From an uncultured bacterium (lineage in GTDB: Bacteria; Patescibacteriota; Minisyncoccia; Moranbacterales; UBA2206), in the NCBI GenBank assembly GCA_903937035.1, contig CAIZXS010000023.1, forward strand, positions 1,188 to 65,187: a DNA stretch of 64,000 bases. The letters are read 5' to 3'. The translations under genes were made by a program, and so were the position numbers. Of this stretch, positions 3,943-52,528 are shown in pieces (position 1 is the stretch's first letter; the number at the start of each line of letters is the position of its first letter). The notes under the pieces are model-generated. The model was given only the letters and a program-made list of their open reading frames with translations. It had not been told where the DNA came from and did not search any database.

Positions 3943-4941
3943 TTATTTATTACTAATATATGCAGCCATTTCTACAAGCCGATTAGAATAGCCCCATTCA
4001 TTGTCATACCAACCGACAACCTTAACCAAATTGCCATTAGCCATCGTAAGTGGAAGGTCTACAATTGCGCTATGCGCATCTCCTTTAAAATCCATAGACA
4101 CTAATCCCTCATCAGTTACTGAGAGAATTCCCTTCATATCATTTTGTGCTGCATCACGAAAGGCATTGTTCAATTCATCTACCGTTGCATCTTTCTTTAA
4201 ATTACAAATAAAATCAACAATGGAAACAACTGGAGTTGGAACACGCAGAGAGATTCCATCCAGCTTACCCTCCAAATGTTTCATAACCTTGCCCACAGTT
4301 TTTGCTGCACCGGTTGTTGTTGGAATAATACTAAGAGCTGCTGCCCTTGCTCGTCGCAGATCTTTATGTGGCAAATCCAAAATGCGCTGATCATTTGTGT
4401 AGGAATGAGTAGTGGTCATAAAACCTTTCTCTAAGCCGAAATTATCATCTAAGATCTTAATTATCGGAGCGAGACAGTTGGTCGTACAAGAACCATTGGA
4501 AATAATCGCTTCGGACGGATCATACTCATTTTCATTAACCCCTAAAAGATAAATTGGAATATCATCTTTTGGTGGCGCACTAAGAATCACTTTCTTCGCG
4601 CCAGCCTCTAGGTGCTTGCTTGCTTTTTCTCGATTCTCAAAAACTCCAGTGCATTCAAGAACAATGTCAATTCCCAACTCTTTCCAAGGTAATTTTTCAG
4701 GGTCCTTCTCGGAAAAAAATTTGATCCTAGTTCCATCTATGATTAATTCTGAATTTTCCTCATCCACATTTACTTCATGAGCATAGCGACCGTAACTAGA
4801 GTCATATTTAAAAAGATGCGCAGCAGTCTTGAGATCAGTAAGATCATTGATCGCGACTACTTCCAAATCTTCTTTTTCAAAGGCGATTTTTAGACTTGGT
4901 CTACCAATTCGACCAAAACCATTGATTGCAATTTTTGTCAT
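3943..4941 (-). CDS. gap: Glyceraldehyde-3-phosphate dehydrogenase
   Basis: INGFGRIGR, SNGSCTTNCLAP, WYDNEWGYS. Start set at MTKIAING; the longer MLHVAYY extension in the ORF track is read through the upstream CATG-heptad element. Confidence 0.95.
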   Translation of the reverse strand: MTKIAINGFGRIGRPSLKIAFEKEDLEVVAINDLTDLKTAAHLFKYDSSYGRYAHEVNVDEENSELIIDGTRIKFFSEKDPEKLPWKELGIDIVLECTGVFENREKASKHLEAGAKKVILSAPPKDDIPIYLLGVNENEYDPSEAIISNGSCTTNCLAPIIKILDDNFGLEKGFMTTTHSYTNDQRILDLPHKDLRRARAAALSIIPTTTGAAKTVGKVMKHLEGKLDGISLRVPTPVVSIVDFICNLKKDATVDELNNAFRDAAQNDMKGILSVTDEGLVSMDFKGDAHSAIVDLPLTMANGNLVKVVGWYDNEWGYSNRLVEMAAYISNK

Positions 4942-5018
4942 GTAGTATGCAACATGTAACATGTAACAATTCTCCTTTTGAGCGTTGCTTCATATTTCAT
5001 GTTTTGTATTATGTAAAT
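4939..5018 (-). promoter_or_regulatory. Bipartite CATG-heptad element upstream of gap. The proximal part abuts the ATG (minus-strand reading TTGTTACATGTTACATGTTGCATACTACATG); a degenerate distal part reads CATGAAATATGAAG
   Basis: 7-nt periodic YTACATG repeats adjoining the start codon, as found at dfx, adk and rpmB. Confidence 0.5.
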
Positions 5019-5020
5019 TA

Positions 5021-5293
5021 TTATACTTCAATATCTGTTATCTTCCAGCTATCCCCCGCTACTTTTTTAATTACAAAGGCCACATTCTCAAATTCCGTAT
5101 TTTTTGCAATACTTGCAAGACCAAACTGCAAATTTTCAACACTAATATCTTCTGTGTGTTCCGGATGACCATCATGCGCCAAACTAATCAAACCAATTTC
5201 AAGATTAACTTTCTTTATTTTCGTCAATGACTTTTCCTTGGCTATCGCGCCAAGCTCATCAATTACTTCTTTTGCCAATATGAAATCATGCAT
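5021..5293 (-). CDS. HypA-like hydrogenase nickel-insertion protein N-terminal domain, lacking the C-terminal CxxC...CxxC zinc finger
   Basis: From the MHD start it aligns with the HypA N-terminus (MHE...L...L...A...KV..V.L.IG). There is no Cys in the C-terminal half. Confidence 0.4.
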   Translation of the reverse strand: MHDFILAKEVIDELGAIAKEKSLTKIKKVNLEIGLISLAHDGHPEHTEDISVENLQFGLASIAKNTEFENVAFVIKKVAGDSWKITDIEV

Positions 5294-5318
5294 ACCGATT
5301 CTTACTTTAACAATTAAC

Positions 5319-5693
5319 CTAGCTGACCCAAAGACCATGAACATTGCAATAAGCCCTCGCTGCAAGGTGCTCTGCCTCCAAGAAAAACTCCACCTGAGGC
5401 TCTGATCCCGGCTCTAGATATTTGCGATATACCCGATGTTCCGTAACAACCTCAATCCATTCAATATAATGTTCACTCTCCATTGGATGAGTAATCTCTC
5501 CGACACGTACAATCACGCCAGTATCATTTCTTTCAATCGTTGGCTTATGTTTCTCCACTCCCTCGTCTTCTGTTTTGGCAAATTGCTGCTCCATCGGGGC
5601 CCCACAGCAAACCAACTCCCCCGCGCCCCCATGTGTCATTTCAACTATGTTCCCACAAATGTTACACTTGTAGATTTGATTTAGTTCAGTCAT
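5319..5693 (-). CDS. dfx: Desulfoferrodoxin (2Fe superoxide reductase)
   Basis: Desulforedoxin-like N-terminus YKCNICGNIVEMTHGGAGELVCCGAPM. SOR domain with EKHKPTIE, HPMESEHYIEWIE and AYCNVHGLW. Start set at MTELNQ. Confidence 0.9.
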   Translation of the reverse strand: MTELNQIYKCNICGNIVEMTHGGAGELVCCGAPMEQQFAKTEDEGVEKHKPTIERNDTGVIVRVGEITHPMESEHYIEWIEVVTEHRVYRKYLEPGSEPQVEFFLEAEHLAARAYCNVHGLWVS

Positions 5694-5824
5694 AGTTATG
5701 TAGCATGAAACATGTAGCATGTAACAATTGAATGCTTCAAGCTTCGTGCGTGTTAAATAATTTTTAATCTTGTCCATCTCCCCCTTGCTCTCTCTGTTTT
5801 ATGTTTCATGTTTCATGTTTCATG
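5691..5824 (-). promoter_or_regulatory. Bipartite CATG-heptad element upstream of dfx. The proximal part reads AATTGTTACATGCTACATGTTTCATGCTACATAACT+ATG; the distal part is (CATGAAA)x3, 67 nt further upstream
   Basis: Direct read of the sequence. The distal array is the reverse complement of a (TTTCATG)n array, so it is inverted relative to the proximal YTWCATG heptads. Confidence 0.55.
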
Positions 5825-5825
5825 A

Positions 5826-7085
5826 CTAATGCACCGCGCAAGAAATGCACGGATCATAGGCACGAATGAACGCGCGCAACTTTTTTTCTTTTTCCTTATC
5901 TTTTAATTTCAAGATTTGAGGAATATATGCGGCGATATCATCTTCCAGATTAGACAAGAACTGAGCGGTTGGAGTAATGATGTTCACGTTTTTAACATAA
6001 CCCTTGGCGTCAACATCGACGTGATAATAGAGTGTTCCGCGTGGCGCTTCCACTGCTGCCGAACCCTCACCTTCTTTAATGGTATATTCTTTTGTCACGA
6101 CTTCTTCCAAATCACTGCTTAACAGCTCCAACATAATTCTTCTTGATTCTTCAATCGAATGAATGACTTCTACCATCTGCGCTAGAATATTATGGAAAGG
6201 ATTATAATCGGGGAAGTTCCATCCCAGACTTTTCAGATATTCTGAGGCCTTCAATCTTAACTTAACTCTATTATTGTTTATTCGCGCAATCGCTCCTATC
6301 ATATAGCTCTTTCCATTGTGCTCCACTCTTTTAATTATCTCGTTCTGTTTTTGCAGTTCCAAAAAGTTAGCTTCAAATTTTTCCACTGGGATATGCAAAC
6401 CAAAATTGGAAATTATATCCCCATCATAAATCGCATATTCTCCTCTCTTGTCCAGTGAAACATATTCAGTCTCTCGCGAAAAATCTGGTATTTTGATGCC
6501 GCGAAAAAATTCCCCTAGCTCCAATGCTATTTGCAAAACATCCTCTGAATTTTTAAGTATTCCTTTTAATAATTCCCTGTCTGGAGCCTTCTTAAACCCA
6601 CCCACCTCATTGGTCAGCGGATGCACAACCCTCCCACCAACCACCCTCACTATCTCCATTCCGAATTCACGAAGTTTGATTGCTTTCTTCGCCTCTTCAG
6701 GGTATTTACTCACGAGCTCAATGTCATTATCCATATCCAAGAAATCAGCTAGAGACAGAAAAAAGAGATGCAGTGAATGAGAATGAATGAACTGCGCATA
6801 TTCCATAAGTGTTCGCAGCTTTTCCGTCTCATATGTTACAGTTACGCCCATGGCATTTTCTAGAGCCTTAATCGAAGTAAGATTGTGTACGACAGGACAA
6901 ATCCCACAAATACGTTGAGCAACAAGAGGCATGTCCTTATACTCCCGCCCAACGAGAACGCCTTCAATAAGACGAATTCCCTCTTGCACCTGCAACTTGG
7001 CCGATTTAACATCACCCTTTATCACGCTTGCCATAAAGCCAGCATGACCTTCCATTTTTGCGATATGATTTATTTTGATATTCAT
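5826..7085 (-). CDS. [NiFe] hydrogenase large (catalytic) subunit, cytoplasmic group 3 type
   Basis: N-terminal RICGICPVVH. The C-terminus has DPCISCAVH, and the protein ends at that His with no C-terminal extension. Confidence 0.9.
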   Translation of the reverse strand: MNIKINHIAKMEGHAGFMASVIKGDVKSAKLQVQEGIRLIEGVLVGREYKDMPLVAQRICGICPVVHNLTSIKALENAMGVTVTYETEKLRTLMEYAQFIHSHSLHLFFLSLADFLDMDNDIELVSKYPEEAKKAIKLREFGMEIVRVVGGRVVHPLTNEVGGFKKAPDRELLKGILKNSEDVLQIALELGEFFRGIKIPDFSRETEYVSLDKRGEYAIYDGDIISNFGLHIPVEKFEANFLELQKQNEIIKRVEHNGKSYMIGAIARINNNRVKLRLKASEYLKSLGWNFPDYNPFHNILAQMVEVIHSIEESRRIMLELLSSDLEEVVTKEYTIKEGEGSAAVEAPRGTLYYHVDVDAKGYVKNVNIITPTAQFLSNLEDDIAAYIPQILKLKDKEKEKKLRAFIRAYDPCISCAVH

Positions 7086-7129
7086 GATTTAATTATACTT
7101 TATTTTTTGCAATAAGACTAGAAAAGAAC

Positions 7130-8068
7130 CTATTTAAAGTTGCAAGTAACCTTTAGCGCATTCAGATCTTCCATCGAAAGCTGCGGATTTTCCATATTTT
7201 GATCAGAGAGCAAATAATACATAATTGATTTAGGATCATCAACATGTCCAATCCCCAATGCATGACCTAATTCATGCACGATCGTTAGTCGCAGATCAGC
7301 AGTTTGTTTAAATTGATAGATATTGATTTCTATCCCGTCATAGAGTCCCTTTTCAAACTCTCGTCCGCCACCATATTTAATCTTATATGTTGATACACTT
7401 GCATTATACTCATTTACAACGCTTTTTTCCTTCGAAACCAGAGCATTTGTCTTTCCAGCCAAACTATTCACCTCCATTCGCTCTTTCTCAAGTTTATCAT
7501 GCAAGTCTCCTAGTGCATTTTTATCCGATTTCAAATCATCATATTTATCATCAGATATTCCGCCATGCTTGTTCCAATAATCCACTTCGTCATTATATTT
7601 TTTCAATTTTTTTTCATATTCTGTAACATTTTGGTTGTATTTAGCGACTTTTTGCGCATATGTCCCACTGAGGTCTTCGTATTGGTTGGCAATTTTTTTG
7701 TGTGACGCCTCTAGCTGTTCAAGACTTTGAGACAGCTCGTCCGCCTCATTAGACGCAGATTGCCGTTCATCAAAAATCAAATTAATTTTAAACTGAGACT
7801 CAGGGTCATACTCAAATAGATTTCTCCCGGATTGTCGATCCCAAGTCTTTTCCGCATCTTTCGCTACAAGCAAGAGATCATCAGTGCTCAAATTAAATCT
7901 CGGGTCAACTGTACCGATGGTATATCTAAATGGCTTAAGGCAAGACAAATTTATTCCAGTAACCTTCTGGATTTTTTCTTCTACTACCAGCTTATTTTGA
8001 GAATACACTCTCCAAAAAGAAAAAGCGATAATAGCGATAATAGCGAAATAATAAAAAAATTTCTTCAT
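7130..8068 (-). CDS. Membrane-anchored metzincin-type zinc metalloprotease with an internal ~130-aa coiled-coil insertion
   Basis: Motif HELGHALGIGH (HExxHxxGxxH) followed by a Met-turn SIMYY. N-terminal TM helix FFYYFAIIAIIAFSFW. K/E-rich heptad-like segment in the middle. Start chosen at MKKFF, which has an upstream GAGAGGA. Confidence 0.6.
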   Translation of the reverse strand: MKKFFYYFAIIAIIAFSFWRVYSQNKLVVEEKIQKVTGINLSCLKPFRYTIGTVDPRFNLSTDDLLLVAKDAEKTWDRQSGRNLFEYDPESQFKINLIFDERQSASNEADELSQSLEQLEASHKKIANQYEDLSGTYAQKVAKYNQNVTEYEKKLKKYNDEVDYWNKHGGISDDKYDDLKSDKNALGDLHDKLEKERMEVNSLAGKTNALVSKEKSVVNEYNASVSTYKIKYGGGREFEKGLYDGIEINIYQFKQTADLRLTIVHELGHALGIGHVDDPKSIMYYLLSDQNMENPQLSMEDLNALKVTCNFK

Positions 8069-8177
8069 TATTGTCCTCTCGACGGACTGTCCGCCCGTGA
8101 GTTTTTTATCCCACTTTTTAAAAATAATTGGCACAAATCTAAAATTATGCACCATAGCGGACTGTCCGCTTTTAATT

Positions 8178-9134
8178 TTATCTTTTTGCTAGCTTATCCT
8201 TCCTTTCTCTCTCTTCTAAATCATCCCTGAGTCCAAAAATTTCAGTCATGTTCTGGAACTGTTCATCACTCATCATGCTTTTTAGCATCATGCGCATCGC
8301 ACTAACATTCCCCGTTGCTCGAAGCCCGCGACAACCCTGGCATTGCGCACGCGAACTTGGACAAGTTGCGTTGCATCCGCCCAAAATCATCGGCCCAAAA
8401 CATGGCTTCTTATCCAGAAGCAAACAACGATTGCCCGCTTTTTTGCATTCCACACAAACTGGCTGATCGGGAATAAGCGGGACATTGCCTTTGAGCAGTT
8501 CTGGGATATATTGCAAAAATTCTTCCCCATTGATGGGACAGCCTGGAAAAACAAAATCCACTTTCACAAAATTATCCAACTCTCGAATCGCTGGATTATT
8601 AATTCCTTGCAAATATTTATAAACATGTTTTATCGTGCTCACACCTTCGTGATAATTTTTCATTTCCGGAATTCCGCCCATCGCCGCGCAGTTTCCAAGA
8701 GCTACGAGTATCTTTGCTCTTTTTCTTGCTTCAAGTAGCGTTTTCTCATTTTCTTTCGTCACAGGATTTCCCTCAATGAGAACCAAGTCTAACATTCCGC
8801 CATCATCCTCCCAGTCTTCAATCAGCCGGAAATCAACCAGCTCAATTATTTCTGTTAGTGCCAAAAAGCGCGTACCAAGATCAAGCAGGACAAACTGGCA
8901 ACCCTCACAAGAAGTCAGACTAATAATCGCTACACGTGGTTTTCCGCTGGCTTTTTTTTCTACCACTTTTGTTTTCGCTCCTGATACTGCTGTTTTCTTT
9001 ATCACCTTAGTCTTGACCACTGCCACTTTTTTTATTGCTTTCGCTTTATCTGTCACTGCCTTTTTCGGTTTAGCTTTTTTTGTTTCTGGTTTATTTTTAA
9101 TTACCATTGTTTTAGAAATATAATTTAACTTCAC
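8178..9134 (-). CDS. [NiFe] hydrogenase small subunit (NuoB/Oxidored_q6 fold) with a ~65-aa Lys/Ala/Val-rich N-terminal tail
   Basis: SLTSCEGCQ, ALGNCAAMGGIP, GCPINGEE, plus distal Cys clusters. The tail reads KKAKPKKAVTDKAKAIKKVAVVKTKVIKK. Confidence 0.85.
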   Translation of the reverse strand: MKLNYISKTMVIKNKPETKKAKPKKAVTDKAKAIKKVAVVKTKVIKKTAVSGAKTKVVEKKASGKPRVAIISLTSCEGCQFVLLDLGTRFLALTEIIELVDFRLIEDWEDDGGMLDLVLIEGNPVTKENEKTLLEARKRAKILVALGNCAAMGGIPEMKNYHEGVSTIKHVYKYLQGINNPAIRELDNFVKVDFVFPGCPINGEEFLQYIPELLKGNVPLIPDQPVCVECKKAGNRCLLLDKKPCFGPMILGGCNATCPSSRAQCQGCRGLRATGNVSAMRMMLKSMMSDEQFQNMTEIFGLRDDLEERERKDKLAKR

Positions 9135-9976: not shown

Positions 9977-11314
9977 GTGCAACAAAAAAAATCCTCCATG
10001 CTATACTATTCTCATCATATGAACACCCACCCCTTCCCCCAAAAAACCAAGCAGACTATCCTCGCCCTCGGCGCCGAATCCGAAGGAAATTTCTGTTTTT
10101 TTGCACAAAACAAAATTTATTTTTCGGAGAATTTTGGTGATCTCTTGAAAGAAAAAAACTGGCAAAAATATCAAGCGGCGGTTTTGGAATTTTTGAAAAA
10201 AAATAAATTCAAACCGGACCTACTTCTCACCGACCTACATCCTCTCTATTTGACTTCGGTTTGGGGCAAAGCTCTAGGTAAAAAATACAAAGTTAAGCAT
10301 ATTCAAGTTCAACACCACCTAGCGCACCTTTTCTCAACTATCGGCGAAAAAATCATATTAGATACTAAATACCAGATACCAGATACCATTTACGGGATTG
10401 CTATGGATGGAACGGGCTATGGAACTGATGAAAAAATTTGGGGAGGAGAAGTGTTTAAAATCAAAAATCCCATGCCTACCGGCAGGCAGGAAAAATCAAA
10501 AATAAAAATTATCGAACGAATCGGCCATCTTGAAAATCAAGTCTTGATCGGTGGAGATTTAGCAATAAGAGAACCGGCGCGAATGTTGATTAGCATTTTG
10601 GATAAGGTATTGTTACCCCCTCCTTACCAAGGAGAGGGGTTGGGGGTGAGGTTAAAGAGCAATACACAAAGAAAAAATACTACTTACCGCTTCGTAAAAA
10701 ACTACTACACCAAAAACGAATTTGAGTTAATTTACGCCCAGCTCCAGCAAAATTTCAACTGCCTCGAAACTTCCAGCACCAGCCGAGTCCTAGATGCTGT
10801 TTCGCTACTTTTAGGTTTTTGTGAAAATGAGAGAAAATACAAGCACGAACCGATCGCTCCGCTAGAAACCAACTCCACAAGACCCTATGTGGATTTAAAA
10901 CCAAAAATTATACTTTCACAGGGCAAGCGAGTTTTAAACACGACTTTTTTGTTTGAATATTTAATTAAAAATTTGCATAAAGATAAGAAGCGCCTAGCTG
11001 CAACTGCACAACTCTATGTCGCTCGGGGATTATATGAACTCATAAAAAACAGTTGTCATCCTGAGCGAAGTCGAAGCCTGCCTGCCGGTAGGCAGGGATC
11101 TACCTGCAAATACCACCAGCGATATTCTACAGAAGATTCTTCGACTCCGCTGCGCTGCGCTCAGAATGACATTTTTATAGCCGGTGGCATCGCCAATAAC
11201 AAAATTATTTCTGTATATTTAATTTCCCAAGGTGCTTATGCAAGCAAAGAGATCCCCCGCGGCGACGCCGGGCTTTCTTTTGGACAGATTATTTGCTACT
11301 TACTTTCAAAGTAA
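9977..11314 (+). CDS. hypF: HypF-like carbamoyltransferase, Kae1/TsaD-like C-terminal domain only. It lacks the acylphosphatase, Zn-finger and YrdC domains and carries in-frame insertions
   Basis: VQHHLAHLFS (HypF HHxAH motif), ILALGAESEGNFCF, FIAGGIANN. Internal palindromic 16-mer at 10475-10490 and a MITE-like insert at 11055-11170. Confidence 0.6.
   Translation: MQQKKSSMLYYSHHMNTHPFPQKTKQTILALGAESEGNFCFFAQNKIYFSENFGDLLKEKNWQKYQAAVLEFLKKNKFKPDLLLTDLHPLYLTSVWGKALGKKYKVKHIQVQHHLAHLFSTIGEKIILDTKYQIPDTIYGIAMDGTGYGTDEKIWGGEVFKIKNPMPTGRQEKSKIKIIERIGHLENQVLIGGDLAIREPARMLISILDKVLLPPPYQGEGLGVRLKSNTQRKNTTYRFVKNYYTKNEFELIYAQLQQNFNCLETSSTSRVLDAVSLLLGFCENERKYKHEPIAPLETNSTRPYVDLKPKIILSQGKRVLNTTFLFEYLIKNLHKDKKRLAATAQLYVARGLYELIKNSCHPERSRSLPAGRQGSTCKYHQRYSTEDSSTPLRCAQNDIFIAGGIANNKIISVYLISQGAYASKEIPRGDAGLSFGQIICYLLSK
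10475..10490. repeat. Palindromic 16-mer CCTACCGGCAGGCAGG; reverse complement of the 16-mer at 11077-11092
   Basis: Exact inverted match ~600 nt apart inside the hypF-like ORF. A related hairpin, CTGCCGACAGGCAG, lies at 55633-55646. Confidence 0.6.
11055..11170. mobile_element. MITE-like element with terminal inverted repeats GTCATCCTGAGCGAAGTCGAAG / CTTCGACTCCGC..CTCAGAATGAC, inserted in frame within the hypF-like CDS
   Basis: The ends match the intergenic copy at 52587-52714 and the centre differs. It contains the hairpin CCTGCCTGCCGGTAGGCAGG. The host ORF stays open, with encoded insert ...HPERSRSLPAGRQGSTCKYHQRYSTEDSSTPLRCAQNDIF... Confidence 0.65.
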
Positions 11315-11320
11315 CTTATG

Positions 11321-12364
11321 TCAGCATATCCGCGGAATCAACTTTCCTTTTGGCACTTCAATTTTTTTCTCACTACCAAGCTTAGTCTTGAGCCATACAC
11401 CATTGCCTTTTGAAACTACCCCCGTAATCTTAGCCTCACGATTAAATTTCCTAAGAATTTCAATTACTTTGTTGCTGTCTTTTTTTGCAACCGTTGCCAC
11501 AAATCTGCCCTCGGACGGAAAAGAAAACTTATCAATGCCCAAAAGCCCAGAAAGCGCCACGGTTTCCTTGGCAAAAGGTAAATTATTTTCTTCAAGTACG
11601 AATCTCATTTTAGATTTTTCCGCCATTTCGTTGAGCACCGCCGCCACTCCACCACGCGTCGGATCTTTGCAAGAAGTGAGATAGGGTAAGATACTTTGAA
11701 TTTCGGCTGTTACGGGCTGGCAATCACTTTTTATTTTTGTCCGATAATTAAAACGACTAGCCAAAAGCGCCACGGCGTGTTCGCCCAGATTGCCGGAAGC
11801 AATGATCACATCGCCCACTTTTGCTCCGCCATTTTCAATAACCTTCTTAGCGAGCCCCACGCCAGAAGTCGTAATTTCAATCTTGTCAATTTTGCCTTTT
11901 TCGGTCACCTTAGTGTCCCCCGTCACAATCGGCACACCGGTCTCCTTGGAAATTTTTCCAATTGACTGCATTATTTTTTTCAAATCTTCCAGGGGAAAAC
12001 CTTCCTCAATCACAACACTGAGTGATATTCCAATCGGCAGCGCGCCCATCACCGAGAGATCATTAATCGTCCCGCAAATGGCGATTTTCCCAATGTCTCC
12101 GCCCGGAAAAAAAATTGGATCCACAATAAACGCATCAGTTGTGAAGACTAATTTTTCCTTTCCCAGATCATATACAGCCCCATCATCTTTGGTATTTTCC
12201 CATTTTTTTGACACAAGGAAAAACTTCCTAATCTCAGAGATAAGCTTTGATGACTTTTCGCCTCCGCCACCATCTTCCAATTCAATAAATTTCTTTTTAA
12301 ATTTTAAATTGTCATTTTCCATTTTGAGATTTACATTTTCAATTATTATATCGATACTCCACAT
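11321..12364 (-). CDS. hypE: Hydrogenase maturation factor HypE
   Basis: GGDIGKIAICGTINDLSVMGA; C-terminal PRIC. Start chosen at MWSID, which has an upstream GGAGGGGAG. Confidence 0.9.
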   Translation of the reverse strand: MWSIDIIIENVNLKMENDNLKFKKKFIELEDGGGGEKSSKLISEIRKFFLVSKKWENTKDDGAVYDLGKEKLVFTTDAFIVDPIFFPGGDIGKIAICGTINDLSVMGALPIGISLSVVIEEGFPLEDLKKIMQSIGKISKETGVPIVTGDTKVTEKGKIDKIEITTSGVGLAKKVIENGGAKVGDVIIASGNLGEHAVALLASRFNYRTKIKSDCQPVTAEIQSILPYLTSCKDPTRGGVAAVLNEMAEKSKMRFVLEENNLPFAKETVALSGLLGIDKFSFPSEGRFVATVAKKDSNKVIEILRKFNREAKITGVVSKGNGVWLKTKLGSEKKIEVPKGKLIPRIC

Positions 12365-13379
12365 TACAACTCCCCTCCACCGAAACCATGCAAGCCCCCT
12401 GTGGGCTATTCGGCGTGCAAACTTTCCTAAACAGTAAACAATCTTTTGGCTCAAGAAGTCCTTGCAAAACCAATCCGCACCTGCAAGCACTTGTTTTTGG
12501 CCTTATTTCTTTTTTTATTTTTTCGATCAATTTCCCATGCACAAATTCCGCATCTTGTGCCTGATATTTTTTTCGAATTTTTAGTCCAGAATTCTTGATT
12601 TCTCCAAGGCCTCGCCACTTCGCATCACTAACTTCAAAAACTTCGTTGATTAACTTTAGCGCTTTTTTATTTCCTCCCTTTTTCACTAGCCTACCGTAAG
12701 CATTTTCCACACGAGACTTGTTTTCCAAGATCTGTGTAAGCAGCACATTGATTGCAACTAAAACATCTTCACCAGAAAAACCAGCCACGACCTGAGGGAT
12801 ATTGAATTTTTGATAGACTTCTGTGCCAATTATGGCACTCACATGCCCCGGATCGATAAAACCGTCGACTCGGATTTTTTTGTTTTCAAGAAGTGCTTGC
12901 ATCGCCGGAGGAAAGAGTTTATGGGCACTATAAACCGTGAGCCCTTCTTTTATTGCCCAGGCCGTCATTCCCGTCGTCGTTTCAAAACCAAGCCCAAAAA
13001 AAACTAAACCCAGCCCTTCTCTTTGTAACTCAACCGCCTCAGTAATTGAATAAACGATCCGTACATCTGCGCCGCTCCTTCGCGCTTCCTCAAGACTCAT
13101 CGTGCTCCCCGGAACTTGCATCGTATCGCCATAAACAGCAATTGGAATTCCTGTCAGTGCAAGACCAACAACAATATCAATGTCTGATTGATCCGTTACA
13201 CAAACCGGACAACCTGGCCCGGAAACAAGGGTAATGTTTTTCGGCATCAGTTTTTTAATTCCATGTTCCGCGATCGTCTGCGCGTGTGTCCCACAGAGCT
13301 CCATGAACCGCAAAGGTCGACCGATCTGGGTCGCCTTTTTTTGAATATCATCTATGACTTTGTCCGTGGTAGGTTGCAT
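12339..13379 (-). CDS. hypD: Hydrogenase maturation factor HypD
   Basis: MELCGTHAQ, GPGCPVC, FETT, C-terminal Cys cluster. Confidence 0.95.
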   Translation of the reverse strand: MQPTTDKVIDDIQKKATQIGRPLRFMELCGTHAQTIAEHGIKKLMPKNITLVSGPGCPVCVTDQSDIDIVVGLALTGIPIAVYGDTMQVPGSTMSLEEARRSGADVRIVYSITEAVELQREGLGLVFFGLGFETTTGMTAWAIKEGLTVYSAHKLFPPAMQALLENKKIRVDGFIDPGHVSAIIGTEVYQKFNIPQVVAGFSGEDVLVAINVLLTQILENKSRVENAYGRLVKKGGNKKALKLINEVFEVSDAKWRGLGEIKNSGLKIRKKYQAQDAEFVHGKLIEKIKKEIRPKTSACRCGLVLQGLLEPKDCLLFRKVCTPNSPQGACMVSVEGSCNVEYRYNN

Positions 13380-13380
13380 A

Positions 13381-13584
13381 TTACTTTTTCCCCAAATACC
13401 CCATCATCTCTTTTGCATATTCATCATCCATTTTTTCAATCGCAAAACCAGCATGCACCATAACGTATTCACCAATCTTAGCATCCACTAATGAAATATT
13501 GATTTCTTTTTCAATACCATTAAAATCAACTGTCGCCAGTTGATTTTTAATTGCCATAATTTTTCCTGGAATCGCGAGACACAT
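13381..13584 (-). CDS. hypC: Hydrogenase maturation factor HypC
   Basis: MCLAIPGKI N-terminus, 67 aa. Confidence 0.9.
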   Translation of the reverse strand: MCLAIPGKIMAIKNQLATVDFNGIEKEINISLVDAKIGEYVMVHAGFAIEKMDDEYAKEMMGYLGKK

Positions 13585-13593
13585 AGGCCTTAT

Positions 13594-14634
13594 CTAAGCT
13601 TTAATTTTCATTTTCCCCGCTACAATATTTCCTCTATCTCTCACCAACCTCACCACTTCTCGCTCCGATAGGACATAGTCCAAATATTCATTCTTGCGAA
13701 CTTTTTTATAAATTTTAGAAGAAATAAAAAACGTGCAAATATTTTTTGGATCAATTTTTTCTTTTCGAGCATATTCAGTTCTGATATTTTTAATAATCTC
13801 GTCTTCCTCATTTCGCTCTTTTTCTTCTAATTTTATTATTTTTTCAAAACCTAAATCAAAAAATATTTTTTCAAAATTTTGCTCGTGAGAAATATTTTTC
13901 AACTGCTCACTTATTTTTCCGTCCATTTCTAAATCGATGACCGCCACAGAAAACTTTTTCAAATCATCCAAGTCTTTAATTATTTTTGAAAAATCGTTTT
14001 GATCAGTGAGTGCCGCCACAGGACACGCCTCAACACATTTTCCACAAAAACTACAATCCAGCACCTTTTCATATGGCGTCCCGACGACAACATCTCCTGC
14101 GCGATGATTGAAGCCAAATTTTTGCTCCGGACAGATATTAATACATCTTCGGCATTCCACACAAAACTCGGAATTCCTCGAAATACAAGGATTTTCATTT
14201 TCCACAACTACTCGCGACCAATTATCTCTGAGCAATTTTTGCTCTTCGGAACTAGTCATTTCGCCACGCCTGGGCACAAAATGGAAGTTTTCAATTCTAT
14301 ATTCCTCGGCTAATTTCTGCAAATCACACAATCTATTTTTCTTGCAAGTAGCGCACTTCCCCGCATGATCCGCCCATAAAAGCTCTAAGTTAATTCGACG
14401 CGCCTTGGAAATTTTTTCACTCTCAGTCACAAGATCCATATCCTTACAAACTTTTGTATTGCAAGACGTAATAAGACGCCCACTATTTTCCACCACGCAA
14501 ACGCGACACAAACCTTCATGCGAATATTTCGCACCGCAAAGCGTGGGAATTTTTATTCCCTCACGCATGCAAACTTGGAAAATAGTTTCCCCCACTTTCG
14601 CAGCATATTTTTTGTTATTGATTTTGATTTGCAT
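13594..14634 (-). CDS. HoxU/NuoG-like iron-sulfur subunit (N-terminal 2Fe-2S ferredoxin plus 4Fe-4S domains)
   Basis: CxxxxC..CxxC 2Fe-2S pattern near the N-terminus, several CxxCxxCxxxCP ferredoxin motifs, DHAGKCATCKKNRLCDLQ. Confidence 0.8.
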   Translation of the reverse strand: MQIKINNKKYAAKVGETIFQVCMREGIKIPTLCGAKYSHEGLCRVCVVENSGRLITSCNTKVCKDMDLVTESEKISKARRINLELLWADHAGKCATCKKNRLCDLQKLAEEYRIENFHFVPRRGEMTSSEEQKLLRDNWSRVVVENENPCISRNSEFCVECRRCINICPEQKFGFNHRAGDVVVGTPYEKVLDCSFCGKCVEACPVAALTDQNDFSKIIKDLDDLKKFSVAVIDLEMDGKISEQLKNISHEQNFEKIFFDLGFEKIIKLEEKERNEEDEIIKNIRTEYARKEKIDPKNICTFFISSKIYKKVRKNEYLDYVLSEREVVRLVRDRGNIVAGKMKIKA

Positions 14635-14637
14635 AAT

Positions 14638-15825
14638 TTATTTTAAAATTCCTAGTTTATCAATAGCATTTCGCACTGCCGTGGCAGCAAATTTTCCCAA
14701 TGGACAAAAAGTTGTATTCTCTAGTGTCCACAAAATATCATTTAGTGCTTCCTTGTCACGATCAGCTATCTCACCATCTACTAAGCGTTCGGCAATCTCA
14801 TGTAGGCGAAAAGTCCCCTCACGGCATGGCACACATTTTCCACATGATTCTCGCCTGAAAAATCCGGTCCAGGATAATAATAGATCATAAATATCAGCAG
14901 TCCTGTCCACTACCAAAATTGCGCCTGACCCTAGAATTGGCCCACCTAGCTCTTTTTCTAGATATATTCCTCCAGATGCACCACCAACTTGGGCGAACCA
15001 AAATTCCTTACCATCCTGCATTCCTCCTCCCAATTTAGTAATTGCCTCATCTATCGTAGTAGCGATTGGAGCCTCAAACACACCCATATTCTTAACAGAC
15101 CCACCAAGCACAAATAATTTTGTAGCGCACTTGAGATACTTTTTTCCGCCATTTTGGATAATCCAGGGAATGCTAGCAATCGTTTCAGCATTATTCACTA
15201 CCGTAGGTTTTCCAAAAAGTCCACATTCCGTTGGATAAGGTGGCCGCATTTTTGGCTCTCCGCGATTGCCTTCGATGGAACTCAAGAGTGCTGTTTCTTC
15301 TCCGCAGATATAGGCTCCGGCGCCAGAAAAAATTTCAATCTCTAGTGAATATTTTGAGCTCAATATTTTTGTCCCTAAAAATTTACGCTCTTGGGCCTGC
15401 AAAATTGCTCGCGCTAAAACTTCCTTTGCTTTTTCGTAATTTCCATTGAGATAGATATAACTTTTTTTTGCACCAATCGTGAGAGCAGAAAGAACTAACC
15501 CTTCCAAAAGTAAATGCGGGTTATTCTCTGCAATTAACCGATCCTTATACGTCCCCGGCTCTGATTCATCCAGATTACAAACAAAATATTTTTCACCTTT
15601 CTGCGCGGAGACCATTTCCCATTTCACTCCCGTTAAAAAGCCCGCCCCACCTCGCCCAGAAAGTCTCGATAATTTTACTTCTTTCAATGCGCCTTCTGAA
15701 TCTGATTTTTCAATGAATTCTTTGAGCGCCTCATAACCACCGACAGAAACATAGTCCTCTATCTTTAAAGGATTAATTTTGCCCCAATGTTCGGTGATAA
15801 TTTTTATATTATTCATATACTTCAA
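14638..15825 (-). CDS. HoxF/NuoF-like NAD(H)-binding flavoprotein subunit (51-kDa type)
   Basis: GRGGAGF, CNLDESEPGTYKDR, ESCGKCVPCREGT. Confidence 0.9.
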   Translation of the reverse strand: MKYMNNIKIITEHWGKINPLKIEDYVSVGGYEALKEFIEKSDSEGALKEVKLSRLSGRGGAGFLTGVKWEMVSAQKGEKYFVCNLDESEPGTYKDRLIAENNPHLLLEGLVLSALTIGAKKSYIYLNGNYEKAKEVLARAILQAQERKFLGTKILSSKYSLEIEIFSGAGAYICGEETALLSSIEGNRGEPKMRPPYPTECGLFGKPTVVNNAETIASIPWIIQNGGKKYLKCATKLFVLGGSVKNMGVFEAPIATTIDEAITKLGGGMQDGKEFWFAQVGGASGGIYLEKELGGPILGSGAILVVDRTADIYDLLLSWTGFFRRESCGKCVPCREGTFRLHEIAERLVDGEIADRDKEALNDILWTLENTTFCPLGKFAATAVRNAIDKLGILK

Positions 15826-27969: not shown

Positions 27970-28601
27970 AGTATTTTTAAAATATCCTCAAAAACTTCAT
28001 TTGGACTTTTAGATCCATCAATTCTGGAAACCAATTTCTTATTTTCAAAATATTCAATCACTGGAATCGTTTCCTCCATAAAAATACTCAATCTTTTTTC
28101 AATACCTTCCTTCGTATCATCCACTCTTTGGACCAACTTCCCGGAGCATTTTAAACAAATAAGATTTTGGTCATCCTCTTTCAAGACTACCGCTTCTTTG
28201 CATTTTTCGCAAGAAAACCGCTTTCCAATTCTTTTCAGCGACTCCTCTTTAGAAATATCCACAAAAATAACTCGATCAATCTTCCGGCCAAATTCCCCCA
28301 GTGCTTGCTCAAAATATCCTGCTTGATCAATATTTCTTGGAACTCCATCGAAAACGACTCCCTGTTCCCGTCCGAGATCATCAAGGCGAATATGCAAAAT
28401 TTCTCGCAATATTCGACTTGGCACAAGCGTTTTTGTCACATTCTGAATCTCGTAAACCTCACGCCCCAAAGGAGTGTCTAATTTAGCAACTTGACGCAAA
28501 GCGCAGCCAGTATCAAAATGATCCAAGCCAAATTTTTCTGCCAAAAGTTTTGCCTGTGTGCCTTTGCCTGAGCCTTGGGGACCCAAAATCACTAAATTCA
28601 T
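27966..28601 (-). CDS. adk: Adenylate kinase (zinc-lid type)
   Basis: GPQGSGKGTQ; lid CEKC...CLKC. Start set at MNLVILGP; the ORF-track extension MRRSLFCQNCYMVHAICY is read through the upstream element. Confidence 0.95.
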   Translation of the reverse strand: MNLVILGPQGSGKGTQAKLLAEKFGLDHFDTGCALRQVAKLDTPLGREVYEIQNVTKTLVPSRILREILHIRLDDLGREQGVVFDGVPRNIDQAGYFEQALGEFGRKIDRVIFVDISKEESLKRIGKRFSCEKCKEAVVLKEDDQNLICLKCSGKLVQRVDDTKEGIEKRLSIFMEETIPVIEYFENKKLVSRIDGSKSPNEVFEDILKIL

Positions 28602-28704
28602 ATAACATATAGCATGAACCATGTAACAATTCTGGCAAAACAAACTTCTCCGCATTAAGATTTAAGAGAAAGTTGTTTCATGTTTCATGTTTCATGCTGC
28701 ATGA
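28599..28704 (-). promoter_or_regulatory. Bipartite CATG-heptad element upstream of adk, immediately after the secY stop. Distal part CATGCAGCATGAAACATGAAACATGAAA; 43-nt spacer; proximal part AATTGTTACATGGTTCATGCTATATGTTAT+ATG
   Basis: Direct read of the sequence; same architecture as the dfx and rpmB copies. Confidence 0.55.
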
Positions 28705-29979
28705 TTAAAAGCCTTCATAATCCCGCATCGCGAGTTGTCCTTGCACCTGCTTGATTGTTTCAATCACAACCGAAACAACGATTAAGAGTCCAGTTCCACC
28801 AATAGAGATAGACCCGATATTAGTAAAGCTTTCCACAAAAAAAGGCAATATTGCGATAAGACCTAAAAAAACTGCGCCAGAAAGAGTAATCCGATTCATA
28901 ATACGATAGAGATAATCAGCGGTATTTTTTCCTGGACGAATTCCGAGAATGTAACCACCTTGCTTTTGCAAACTTTCAGCAATTTTATTTGGATCAAAAA
29001 CAACTGCGGTATAAAAATAAGTAAAGGCGACAACAAGAATAAAATAAAACAACCAATAGAACCAATTGCTTGGAGAAAAAAGCGCACTCACCTTCACAGC
29101 CAAGTTGGCAAGAGTAGTGTTGGAACTTTTCGTAAGAAAATTAGCAATCATTCCTGGAAAAAGCATAATAGAAAGTGCGAAAATAATCGGAATCACGCCA
29201 GCCTGATTGATGCGCAGTGGCAAATGCGTTGAAGTTCCGCCGTACATTTTATTACCCTTAATTCTTTTTGCGTAAGAAACGGGCATATTGCGCTGCCCCT
29301 CTGTCATAAAGACCACAGCAGAAATTGCCAAAATCAAAATAGCACCCAAGATCAAATAAGTAAAAATTTGTGACGAATCCGCTGTCGCATAAGTCTTGGC
29401 TATTGTCGAGGGAATGGCAGAAACGATTCCAGCAAAAATGATGAGCGAAACTCCATTGCCAACACCTTTTTCCGTGATTAGCTCGCCTAGCCACATAAGG
29501 AATATCGTTCCGGCAGTGGCAATTACCATCATCGAGATCACGCTTGTCGCTCCAGTCGCGGCAATAATTCCTTGCGAACGAAAAAGTGCAATCATGCCAA
29601 AAGTCTGCATCGCAGCGAGAGGCACCGTTGCCCAGCGTGTCCATTGATTAAATTTCTGTCGCCCAGCCTCTCCCTCTTCCTTATATATTTTTTCCAATGT
29701 TGGAACAATCATCGTAAGCAGCTGCATGATAATCGAGGCGGTAATATAGGGTCCCACGCCAAGCATTACCAGGGAAATACTCGACAATCCTTGCCCAGAA
29801 AAAAGATTAAGTAAACCAAAAAGCTCATTGCTCTCAAAAAATGCCTTGAGCCGATCCTGATCAACACCAGGGATAGGAATGTTGGCTGCCAAACGAAATA
29901 CGACCAAAAGAGCCAGAATAAAAAATATCTTATTCCTGAGCTCTTTAATACGAAAGATTTGAGTGATTTTAGCTAGCAT
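28705..29979 (-). CDS. secY: Preprotein translocase SecY
   Basis: 10-TM SecY sequence. Confidence 0.97.
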   Translation of the reverse strand: MLAKITQIFRIKELRNKIFFILALLVVFRLAANIPIPGVDQDRLKAFFESNELFGLLNLFSGQGLSSISLVMLGVGPYITASIIMQLLTMIVPTLEKIYKEEGEAGRQKFNQWTRWATVPLAAMQTFGMIALFRSQGIIAATGATSVISMMVIATAGTIFLMWLGELITEKGVGNGVSLIIFAGIVSAIPSTIAKTYATADSSQIFTYLILGAILILAISAVVFMTEGQRNMPVSYAKRIKGNKMYGGTSTHLPLRINQAGVIPIIFALSIMLFPGMIANFLTKSSNTTLANLAVKVSALFSPSNWFYWLFYFILVVAFTYFYTAVVFDPNKIAESLQKQGGYILGIRPGKNTADYLYRIMNRITLSGAVFLGLIAILPFFVESFTNIGSISIGGTGLLIVVSVVIETIKQVQGQLAMRDYEGF

Positions 29980-30001: not shown

Positions 30002-30457
30002 TTATTTCTCCAATTCCTCAACCTTCACCTCGCCACCCGCAGATATAATCGCTTTTTTGACTGTAACGCTCACAAAGATTTCTTTTTCAAAGATAAACTT
30101 TTTTGTCAGTTTAGCATTTCCGAGAACTTTTATTCCCAAGGGAATATTTTTCCGTGCGACAAGTTTCATATTCACCAAAGACTCCACACTGATTATAGCA
30201 CCATTTTCAAAATTCTTTTCGATGTCCGCAATTTGCACGATACTTCTTTTTTTAGTTCTCGAAGTGAAGCCACGTTTTTTCTTCATGTGATCAATCAGCG
30301 TTGAGCGTCCACCTTCAAACAAAGGATCAACATGTGCGCCAGAGCGCGCTTTTTGTCCCTTATTTCCCTTGCCGGAATATGTGCCTTTTTTGCCTCCACG
30401 TCCGATGGTTTTTTTCTTCTTCCTCGGCTGGCTCATTTGTAAATCTTGTCTTAACAT
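30002..30457 (-). CDS. rplO: Ribosomal protein uL15
   Basis: GRGGKKGTYSGKGNKGQKARSG. Confidence 0.9.
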   Translation of the reverse strand: MLRQDLQMSQPRKKKKTIGRGGKKGTYSGKGNKGQKARSGAHVDPLFEGGRSTLIDHMKKKRGFTSRTKKRSIVQIADIEKNFENGAIISVESLVNMKLVARKNIPLGIKVLGNAKLTKKFIFEKEIFVSVTVKKAIISAGGEVKVEELEK

Positions 30458-30484
30458 AAAATTGTAATATCAAATTGCGTATAA

Positions 30485-30988
30485 TTAATTGGCTTTAGCG
30501 ATTCTTTCCTTTCTTGTCTTTGATTCACTCAGCATTCCCAAGGCTTCCACAGTTGCCCGTGCCACATTAAGCTTATTAGCTGTTCCAAGGGACTTAGAAA
30601 CAATATCGCGAATTCCAGCGAAATCAACCACAGCGCGCACTGCCCCTCCAGCCACGATACTTCTTCCTTCCTTAGCTGGTTTCAAAATTACTTTTGCGCT
30701 GCCTTTTTTGTGATGCACTTCGTGTGCAATCGTATTATTTTTAATTGCAACAGTAATCATATTTTTCTTAGCATCATCAAAAGCCTTGCCAATTGCATCT
30801 GTCACATCCGATCCTTTGCCGACTCCAACACCAACCTTGCCTTTGCGATTTCCGATTACAAGAGTTGCGCGAAAACGAAATCGTCTTCCTCCCTTCACCA
30901 CGCGAGTAACACGGGCAAGATCCAGGAGTTTTTGTTCAAATTCCGGCTTTTCTTTTTTTCCTCTAAATTTTCTATCGTTCTTTGCCAT
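30485..30988 (-). CDS. rpsE: Ribosomal protein uS5
   Basis: Sequence match to uS5. It directly precedes rplO with no L30 gene between them. Confidence 0.95.
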   Translation of the reverse strand: MAKNDRKFRGKKEKPEFEQKLLDLARVTRVVKGGRRFRFRATLVIGNRKGKVGVGVGKGSDVTDAIGKAFDDAKKNMITVAIKNNTIAHEVHHKKGSAKVILKPAKEGRSIVAGGAVRAVVDFAGIRDIVSKSLGTANKLNVARATVEALGMLSESKTRKERIAKAN

Positions 30989-51508: not shown

Positions 51509-52198
51509 TCAAATCGCCACCCGCAAAAAGGCGTTAATTGCCGTGCCCAGAAAAACGCGCAAAGGAGAGGAAAAAAAGAATATAAAAAACAAAAGCATAA
51601 TAAAGCCAAACTGCTCAAGCATCGCCTGAGTTTCAATTTTAATCGGAAAGACGGAAAACAAGATCTTGGATCCGTCAAGCGGTGGGATAGGGATCAAATT
51701 AAAAAAAGCCAAAAAAACGTTAATAATAACCACGATAATCAAGAGTTCATAAAATATCGCCCCGACTGATCCAGCAATAACGCCTGAAACTGTCGACCAT
51801 TCATTAAAGTGATTAATAATATCTTTCTTCAAATGCAATGGCAACGCGATAAATCTCGCTCCTAGCGCGGCCAAAAAGGCTACTGTTAAATTTATCCCGG
51901 GTCCCGCCATAGCAACAAGCGCTGGTCCCCATTTCTGATTTTTCAAATTATAGGGATTATAAGGCACTGGTTTTGCCCAGCCAAAAGCAAAGCCAAAAGA
52001 AAGATACATAAAAAGCGGAGCCAAAAATGAGCCAACCAAATCAAGATGACTAAAGGGATTAGCAGTAAGGCGTCCGGCATATTTAGCAGTATTATCCCCA
52101 AGCCAAAGCGCCATCAGCCCATGAAAAACTTCATGGATGATTACGGAGTAAAGCAAAATGGCAACATAAAAAACGATTAACACCACATCATTAGACAT
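51509..52198 (-). CDS. M50 family (site-2 protease-like) zinc metalloprotease
   Basis: HEVFHGL (HExxH) and NLIPIPPLDGSKIL in a multi-TM protein. Confidence 0.85.
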   Translation of the reverse strand: MSNDVVLIVFYVAILLYSVIIHEVFHGLMALWLGDNTAKYAGRLTANPFSHLDLVGSFLAPLFMYLSFGFAFGWAKPVPYNPYNLKNQKWGPALVAMAGPGINLTVAFLAALGARFIALPLHLKKDIINHFNEWSTVSGVIAGSVGAIFYELLIIVVIINVFLAFFNLIPIPPLDGSKILFSVFPIKIETQAMLEQFGFIMLLFFIFFFSSPLRVFLGTAINAFLRVAI

Positions 52199-52260
52199 AC
52201 ATTTTCTTGCTAAAATTATATTCCTATGCTACCTTATATCTTGTAATAAATCAACCAATT

Positions 52261-52354
52261 CATGAAACATGTAACATGAAACACGCAACAAGAGAATCAC
52301 TTCTCTTCGCTGGATACCGCGTGCTACATGCTATATGCTTCATGCTACATGTCT
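52261..52354 (+). promoter_or_regulatory. Bipartite CATG-heptad element upstream of rpmB. Distal part CATGAAACATGTAACATGAAACACG; 36-nt spacer; proximal part TGCTACATGCTATATGCTTCATGCTACATGTCT+ATG
   Basis: Plus-strand copy of the element family; it causes the artefactual [10 protein letters not shown]-terminal extension. Confidence 0.55.
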
Positions 52355-52528
52355 ATGAGTCGAGTTTGTGAAGTTTGCGGACGCGGTCCAGGAACAGGGC
52401 ACACCGTCAGCCATTCTAATGTAAAAACCTTGCGAAAATTTCAAATCAATTTGCAAAGCAAGAAAATTGACGGCGCAAAAACTAGAGTTTGCACCCGTTG
52501 TATCAAAACTGCTAACAAAGAAAAGTAA
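52355..52528 (+). CDS. rpmB: Ribosomal protein bL28 (zinc-binding form)
   Basis: [22 protein letters not shown]...RVCTRC. Confidence 0.85.

Follow-up and report, generated by a model that had tools for sequence, protein, structure and literature searches.

The 64,000-nucleotide stretch analysed here (the window) lies on contig CAIZXS010000023.1 of assembly GCA_903937035.1 (positions 1,188 to 65,187 of the forward strand), from an uncultured bacterium of the Moranbacterales (Patescibacteriota). SecY homology assigns the window to Candidatus Moranbacteria/Moraniibacteriota, a group of the Patescibacteria. Within its ribosomal-protein superoperon, the spacer between secY and adk holds a bipartite element made of 7-nt repeats, which is the subject of this study. 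The genes around the element are all on the minus strand, and we read the spacer on the mRNA strand. The secY gene (28705..29979, -) ends in a TAA stop codon at 28707-28705. We placed the adk start by homology and independent gene calls at the ATG at 28601-28599 (-; MNLVILGPQGSGKGT); the listing of open reading frames (ORFs) puts it too far upstream, at 28655, and runs through the proximal array. The spacer is 102 nt long, and all of it is taken up by the element.

The distal arm (5' on the mRNA; 28673..28704, -) begins at the base adjoining the stop codon (28705..28707, -) and is a period-7 array that reads TAA-T-CATGCAG-CATGAAA-CATGAAA-CATGAAA-CAAC, stop codon included. Tandem Repeats Finder reported 3.3 copies of a period of 7 with 100% matches at 28674-28696, which makes this a non-coding heptanucleotide tandem repeat of at least three copies. 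A variable interior, or loop, of 43 nt follows (28630..28672, -) and holds a small inverted repeat (28638-28650 / 28666-28678). The proximal arm (3' on the mRNA; 28598..28629, -) reads TTG-TTACATG-GTTCATG-CTATATG-TTATATG-A and is built on the heptad variant YTACATG; its TTG completes an AATTG, and the ATG of its final heptad (28599..28601, -) is the adk start codon. The initial annotation of this DNA had set the distal array directly behind the secY stop and the proximal array against the adk ATG. Its description and coordinates are exact; the first CATGCAG unit follows a single T, and the ATG itself belongs to the last heptad.

The two arrays are inverted repeats of each other, a relation missing from that annotation: the arms 28598-28629 and 28673-28704 are 75% complementary over 32 nt. 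Because CATG is its own reverse complement, the inverted arrays look like direct repeats. With 32-nt terminal inverted repeats, a 43-nt interior and no coding capacity, the element is organized like a miniature inverted-repeat transposable element (MITE). Four other independent assemblies have exactly the same sequence here, which rules out an assembly artefact, and the number of units does not vary on that scale. The identical locus is present in the JGI samples 3300045649, 3300045651, 3300045653 and 3300045654.

Four copies of the element in the window

Clusters of CATGAAACATG-type motifs were found at only four places in the window, here called copies A, B, C (the secY-adk copy) and D. With at most one mismatch allowed, CATGAAACATG occurred 13 times against 1.99 expected, and 0/100 shuffles reached 13. 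The initial annotation had taken the secY-adk element to be the same as one seen elsewhere, and the three further copies bear this out. Copy A (4939..5012, -) lies upstream of gap (ATG 4941-4939); its proximal array is TTACATG-TTACATG-TTGCATA-CTACATG and its distal array is degenerate. Copy B (5693..5828, -) fills the space between a hydrogenase large-subunit-like gene (TAG 5828-5826) and a desulfoferrodoxin-like gene (dfx, start 5693), with arms at 5693-5726 and 5795-5828 that are 79% complementary over 34 nt. Copy D (52259..52354, +) lies in the leader of rpmB (ATG at 52355) on the opposite strand from copies A-C and has no co-directional gene upstream; its arms (52261-52286 and 52319-52344, +) are 81% complementary over 26 nt. 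Tandem Repeats Finder detected period-7 arrays at every site. In the window copies the unit is AAACATG in the 5' arm and YTACATG in the 3' arm, and the interiors, some 20 to 70 nt long, do not align with one another, the secY-adk interior sharing only the AATTG beside its 3' arm.

Copy D is the sole informative case on orientation in the window, and its arms are ordered according to its plus-strand gene, not in the absolute orientation shared by A-C. Upstream of it is a weak promoter-like site (52192-52219), so copy D would fall within the rpmB leader. A mini-ORF of 6 codons (ATG CTA CCT TAT ATC TTG TAA; 52226-52246, +) starts just past this site and stops 14 nt short of the copy D 5' arm; it may well be due to chance. 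Across the window CATG is scarcer than base composition predicts (173 observed, 218 expected), though its occurrences gather in the four elements; a restriction-modification or methylation system specific for CATG may have a bearing on this.

The reading frame of the proximal array is the same in 4/4 copies. The ORF listing over-extends adk, gap and dfx by 7-28 codons (28602-28655, 4942-4962 and 5694-5777, respectively) because of in-frame ATGs in or upstream of the 3' arms, and these ATGs are a practical annotation pitfall. A translated N-terminal extension or leader peptide encoded by the proximal array was considered and rejected: adk homology begins at the last ATG, and any three consecutive heptads yield one in-frame ATG.

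Predicted folding and start-site accessibility

Folding predictions indicate that the whole secY-adk spacer can form a single long imperfect hairpin. The RNA hairpin of this copy has a predicted energy of -30 kcal/mol (z = -2.5), and all four copies fold better than shuffled sequence (z -2.5 to -4.4). As AAACATG faces YTACATG, the helix is broken about once per heptad. One mismatch per heptad is true of this family but was dropped as a general rule: helix interruptions are spaced 4-8 nt apart, without a sharp peak at 7. In a wider predicted fold, the secY UAA pairs with a UUA located 4 nt upstream of the adk AUG.

Almost no gene in the window is preceded by a Shine-Dalgarno-like GGAG, and what lies upstream of the starts is simply AT-rich sequence. 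With so few Shine-Dalgarno sites in the genome, the accessibility of the start site should matter. We therefore computed in silico, for 54 start codons, the ensemble energy needed to open the region from -15 to +12 around the start. The median was 6.0 kcal/mol. The adk start required 13.1 kcal/mol (rank 2/54), gap 11.7 kcal/mol (rank 4/54), rpmB 9.9 kcal/mol (rank 7/54) and dfx 8.9 kcal/mol (rank 9/54), and the four element-preceded genes were thus unusually occluded (exact rank-sum P = 4.9e-4). We also modelled coupling, by keeping unpaired the stretch that a ribosome placed at the upstream stop codon would cover. With such a ribosome at the end of secY, the opening cost at adk fell from 11.7 to 7.6 kcal/mol, and with one upstream of dfx it fell from 10.8 to 6.0, in both cases to about the genome median.

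The initial annotation had proposed an internal control point (a promoter, a processing site or a translational element) that uncouples adk and the downstream map from the upstream transcript. Of these options the translational element is plausible, given the predicted occlusion of the adk start (second of 54) and the scarcity of Shine-Dalgarno use. The effect would probably run counter to that proposed: the hairpin would join the secY stop to the adk start, and since the modelled ribosome on the stop unmasks adk, coupling or damping is predicted and not uncoupling. The promoter option found no support. A consensus scan for sigma-70-like sites (-35/-10, 16-18 nt spacing) found none on the minus strand in 28599-28704 and none on the sense strands of copies A, B and D, which leaves the sense strand of all four copies without a match. 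There was also no terminator-like site in the secY-adk spacer, whose AT-rich stem passes directly into adk coding sequence. Rfam covariance models gave no match at gathering score in the whole window, and in 28500-28800 only chance-level matches of microRNA type (E = 1.9-6.4).

Heptad-built elements in related loci

We compared loci around secY from 80 genomes (81 sources, 1.38 Mb in all); labels such as L001 denote loci. The secY-adk junctions of relatives have the same architecture built from other 7-nt units: AATTTCT in L001, CATGAAR in L002, TACGAAT in L003 and L004, AATTTTC in L005, AACGCAT in L006, TAGCTTA in L010 and AATGTTG in L040. The gap between the two genes is just 12-20 nt in L008 and L012, and the more distant L014 and L015 have a classical terminator at this junction, followed in L015 by a TATAAT-like box. 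Typically, the 5' arm sets in within ~5 nt of a stop codon and the 3' arm stops 0-27 nt short of a start codon.

Across this set there were 120 arrays of period 7, 13 of period 8 and 5 of period 9. An inverted partner within 220 nt, scoring above the 95th percentile of a shifted-flank control, was found for 45% of the period-7 arrays. About 40 bipartite elements with many different heptads came from many groups of Patescibacteria, and contigs with the labels NC10/Methylomirabilota and Zixiibacteriota had similar ones. In families that lack a palindromic core, such as AGGTAGT/CTACAAC, GTCAAAA/TTTTGAT and GTTCCGA/GGAACTT, the arms are related solely as reverse complements, so the common feature is hairpin potential and not a shared word. 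On this comparative sequence evidence, heptad-built foldback repeats are common in Moranbacteria and other Patescibacteria, in several sequence families.

CATGAAA arrays also matched metagenome contigs (120 matches) with GC contents of 0.26 to 0.70, most of them without an inverted partner; these contigs are so short and so varied that genes could not be called reliably, and their gene context was not used. Five metagenome contigs (L094, L192, L195, L201 and L131) carry very long heptad arrays in which the unit drifts along the array, for example from CATGAAA through CCTGAAA and CCTCAAA to CCCCAAA, and some of these contigs hold many different heptad families. The GC content of the five ranges up to 0.6. 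When carriage by phages was considered, an 18-mer was present in only 7 viral contigs.

Gain, loss and replacement at operon junctions

A junction-by-junction table of 12 Moranbacteria loci showed that in L001, L004, L005 and L009 many dispersed ribosomal-protein junctions have long hairpin spacers, with six to eight S10-spc junctions occupied in L001 and L005 and almost none in the window and L008. The secY>adk junction was the one most often occupied, in about 9/10 of the Moranbacteria loci that have adk there. Copies recur within a locus: L001 has four at four different junctions with 88-97% identity that extends to the loop, and in L005 several copies at different junctions share 90-94% identity. 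They also recur between loci. The copy at rpsJ>rplC in L004 and that at rpsC>rplP in L005 share 99% identity over 111 nt; overall, these two loci are only ~90% identical across 10-11 kb of a very conserved region.

Closely related loci differ in which junctions are filled. L002 and L004 are 91% identical and differ in occupancy at five or more junctions, four of them filled in L004 only and one holding a 'solo left arm' in L002 only. The insertions in this comparison begin right after the stop codon. At secY>adk both loci are occupied, and the family differs (CATGAAR in L002, TACGAAN in L004). A TACGAA-type foldback in L004 (12016-12100; L002 ~11990) parts adk from map, two genes that overlap in L002, and the adk C-terminus and map N-terminus beside this insertion also differ from those of L002. 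Four copies within 64 kb and varying occupancy among relatives are features of dispersed palindromic repeats. In three families, all loop-containing copies at different junctions share one orientation, and the genes at those junctions also share one direction. Arm composition was rejected as a marker of orientation, since an A-rich-first hairpin reads A-rich-first on either strand; loop sequences or arm variants are needed.

A second palindromic family, which is not heptad-built and has GC-rich ends, was found in the same loci. It takes the form ATCCCGCACCAATT ... AATTGGTGCGGGAT in L005 and L001 and ATCCCGTACAAAATT ... ATTTTTACGGGAT in L002 and L004, at rplO>secY in L002 (9756-9967), L004 (9882-10000) and L005 (9836-9964) and at rplV>rpsC in L001 (3270-3574).

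Other features of the window

Within the superoperon, rpsE (S5) is followed directly by rplO (L15) after a 27-nt gap, without rpmD (L30), both in the window (30002-30988) and in L081 (614-1600); the absence of rpmD fits the Patescibacteria assignment. By eye from the translations, 5021-9134 and 9977-15825 hold NiFe-hydrogenase-like, hydrogenase maturation (Hyp-like) and NuoE/F-like genes together with the desulfoferrodoxin-like gene. A period-7 array of AGATACC (4.1 copies, 10360-10388, +) is apparently coding, inside the long ORF 9977-11314, with no inverted partner noted. A further tandem repeat of 45 nt (or 21 nt) lies at 57410-57498 within an 805-aa ORF (55672-58089, -).

Discussion

The sequence comparisons are best explained if the secY-adk element is a dispersed repeat of the MITE or REP kind rather than a conserved regulator of this junction, because multi-copy families are quickly gained, lost and replaced at junctions that include those of the ribosomal-protein superoperon. 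We lean, if modestly, towards a fuller account in which this dispersed, fast-turnover foldback repeat built from heptads also acts on the mRNA, by masking the adk start or coupling its translation. The element would be transcribed as part of a secY-adk mRNA, and its arms would pair into an imperfect helix of ~30 bp that closes the whole spacer and brings the secY stop opposite the adk start. Such a helix would mask the adk start in a genome whose initiation depends on AT-rich regions free of structure and not on Shine-Dalgarno pairing. A ribosome terminating on secY would melt the base of the helix and expose the start, and translation of adk would then depend on that of secY or simply be damped.

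Several observations weigh against this account. The unalignable loops of the four window copies are unlike the product of recent transposition. No target-site duplication was visible at these copies or in the filled-versus-empty comparisons, a weak negative given the fuzzy boundaries, and no transposase was seen among the window ORFs, which were inspected by eye without a Pfam scan. A candidate autonomous parent, sought as inverted arrays 0.3-4.5 kb apart, was rejected: the matches were only neighbouring small elements of the same family, with no gene-sized interior. The ~9/10 occupancy of secY>adk may reflect selection for an element at this junction, which would not suit a purely selfish one. 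On the RNA side, every energy is an in silico prediction. The modelled ribosome fails to unmask the gap start at copy A (11.8 to 11.5), and unmasking by a ribosome cannot apply to copy D, which has no upstream gene. Among 39 elements the sense strand folded more stably in 21 and the antisense strand in 18 (Wilcoxon p = 0.5), and G-U pairs were not enriched on the sense strand (70, compared with 89 on the antisense strand). Without a folding signature on the sense strand, pairing may be kept at the DNA level or through arm-to-arm copying.

The control point of the initial annotation, specifically a promoter or an RNase processing site (for example for RNase III) that separates adk-map from the ribosomal-protein and secY transcript, would suit a junction that is a natural operon boundary, as the terminators of L014 and L015 and the TATAAT-like box of L015 suggest, and that carries a hairpin element in most of the Moranbacteria examined. 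An imperfect duplex of ~30 bp is also a type of substrate that RNase III can cut. We nevertheless consider this unlikely: the consensus scan found no sigma-70-like site on the sense strand of any of the four copies, the secY-adk spacer has no terminator-like site, the interiors are not conserved, and in relatives elements of this type also sit between ribosomal-protein genes that are tightly co-expressed. Comparison across loci speaks against a control point dedicated to secY-adk and conserved there, because some relatives manage with gaps of 12-20 nt and no element, others have unrelated heptad families there, and the same types of element come and go at many junctions of ribosomal operons.

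Two other explanations were weighed. If the arrays were protein-binding sites and the pairing incidental, adk expression would be set by a protein that coats the arrays as single-stranded RNA and covers ~7 nt (of cold-shock-domain or S1-like type), or by a nucleoid protein that bends the DNA, binds both arrays and loops it. Both arms of the AAACATG/YTACATG family do carry ACATG on the same strand, and there are precedents. Csp, S1 or CsrA has been proposed to bind TAACTGA repeats just upstream of starts (PMC4679880), paired inverted arrays in Geobacter metallireducens have been proposed to be IHF/HU-type sites (PMC2700814), and deletion of heptamer repeats in Nostoc changed reporter expression, by a mechanism that was left open (bioRxiv 10.1101/2022.06.06.494920). 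Many unrelated heptads occur in one small genome, however (six or more in 21 kb of L027), so protein binding would need many specificities or none. Complementarity is not incidental in the core-less families, whose arms are related only as reverse complements, and no candidate protein was identified; we judge protein binding quite unlikely. Neutral slippage during replication, in which heptads expand in situ in AT-rich spacers and the element is immobile and without effect, seems to us very improbable. Heptanucleotide repeats are reported to be the most abundant long simple repeats in prokaryotes and have been ascribed to polymerase slippage (Mrazek 2007, as relayed in PMC4679880); the CATGAAA arrays spread over metagenome contigs of widely differing GC content and mostly unpaired would fit this, as would the inclusion of the start ATG in the last heptad. 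Slippage alone, however, makes no inverted complementary pair, and 45% of arrays were paired where the control threshold allows 5%. It also leaves unexplained why copies, with their loops, are nearly identical between junctions and between genomes and why one family replaces another between 91% identical genomes, and the number of units was stable across five assemblies.

The element is best filed as a combination of a heptanucleotide repeat and a dispersed palindromic (REP/MITE-like) repeat, and as a member of no defined family; our literature search found no paper joining Patescibacteria terms with 'miniature inverted-repeat'. Integron attC sites and triplet repeats of the HutP/TRAP type were rejected on anatomical grounds: attC core sites are lacking, the neighbouring genes are housekeeping genes, and the heptads vary from family to family. 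In Beggiatoaceae, cyanobacteria and Bacteroidetes, tandem heptanucleotide repeats have been described that run up to start codons, also in ribosomal-protein operons with few ribosome-binding sites (PMC4679880). With the cyanobacterial STRR, the Beggiatoaceae TAACTGA repeats and the Nostoc heptamers, the element shares a 7-nt unit in 3-5 tandem copies, an intergenic position ending at or overlapping a start codon, and a location inside ribosomal-protein operons beside genes without a Shine-Dalgarno site. Those repeats are mainly single direct arrays of one genome-wide unit, whereas here complementary inverted pairs run from stop to start and a lineage has many units. The arrays of G. metallireducens come closer in layout, being multi-copy pairs of short-unit (hepta-/octanucleotide) tandem arrays on opposite strands at variable distance and sometimes within an operon, as between proB and proA; they belong to a distant phylum, have different units and were only annotated, as putative IHF/HU sites, with no analysis of hairpins, turnover or translation (PMC2700814).

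REP/BIME, Correia (CREE), ERIC and Rickettsia palindromic elements and MITEs are likewise small, non-coding, hairpin-forming dispersed intergenic repeats, often just past stop codons and variably present between relatives; they are co-transcribed and affect mRNA stability or translation. Unlike these, the arms of the present element consist of tandem heptads that differ by family, the interiors in the window are unrelated, and we found no target-site duplication and, by eye in the window, no RAYT or transposase. The foldback (FB) transposons of eukaryotes resemble it in their long inverted arms of short tandem sub-repeats and their variable arm and loop lengths; they are far larger, and some copies have a known associated transposase. 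As to the effect on translation, structure-mediated coupling, in which a structure covering the start is melted by a ribosome terminating upstream, has been described in a biophysical model (PMC4538824) and was reproduced here in silico for adk and dfx. The usual cases involve short gaps and Shine-Dalgarno sites, whereas here a spacer of ~100 nt would be bridged by a predicted long, repeat-built helix in a genome nearly free of such sites.

A bolder possibility, which we think unlikely, is that heptad-built foldbacks represent a distinct, undescribed class of prokaryotic mobile DNA that inserts in one orientation directly after stop codons without target duplication, also within ribosomal-protein operons, and has been co-opted by hosts lacking Shine-Dalgarno sites as stop-to-start coupling helices. 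If true, this would give a concrete function to the long-unexplained heptanucleotide repeats beside start codons in cyanobacteria, Beggiatoaceae and Geobacter.

Few bacterial loci are as compact and conserved as the ribosomal-protein superoperons, and some ultra-small Patescibacteria genomes still tolerate many hairpin repeats of ~100 nt there. With such repeats exchanged between species that are ~90% identical, the intergenic DNA of these streamlined genomes is far more dynamic than gene order suggests. If stop-to-start helices set coupling, they would offer a sequence-independent means of tuning within-operon expression ratios without Shine-Dalgarno sites, and a handle on the clustering of heptanucleotide repeats at start codons in several phyla, a question left open in the literature of 2009-2022.

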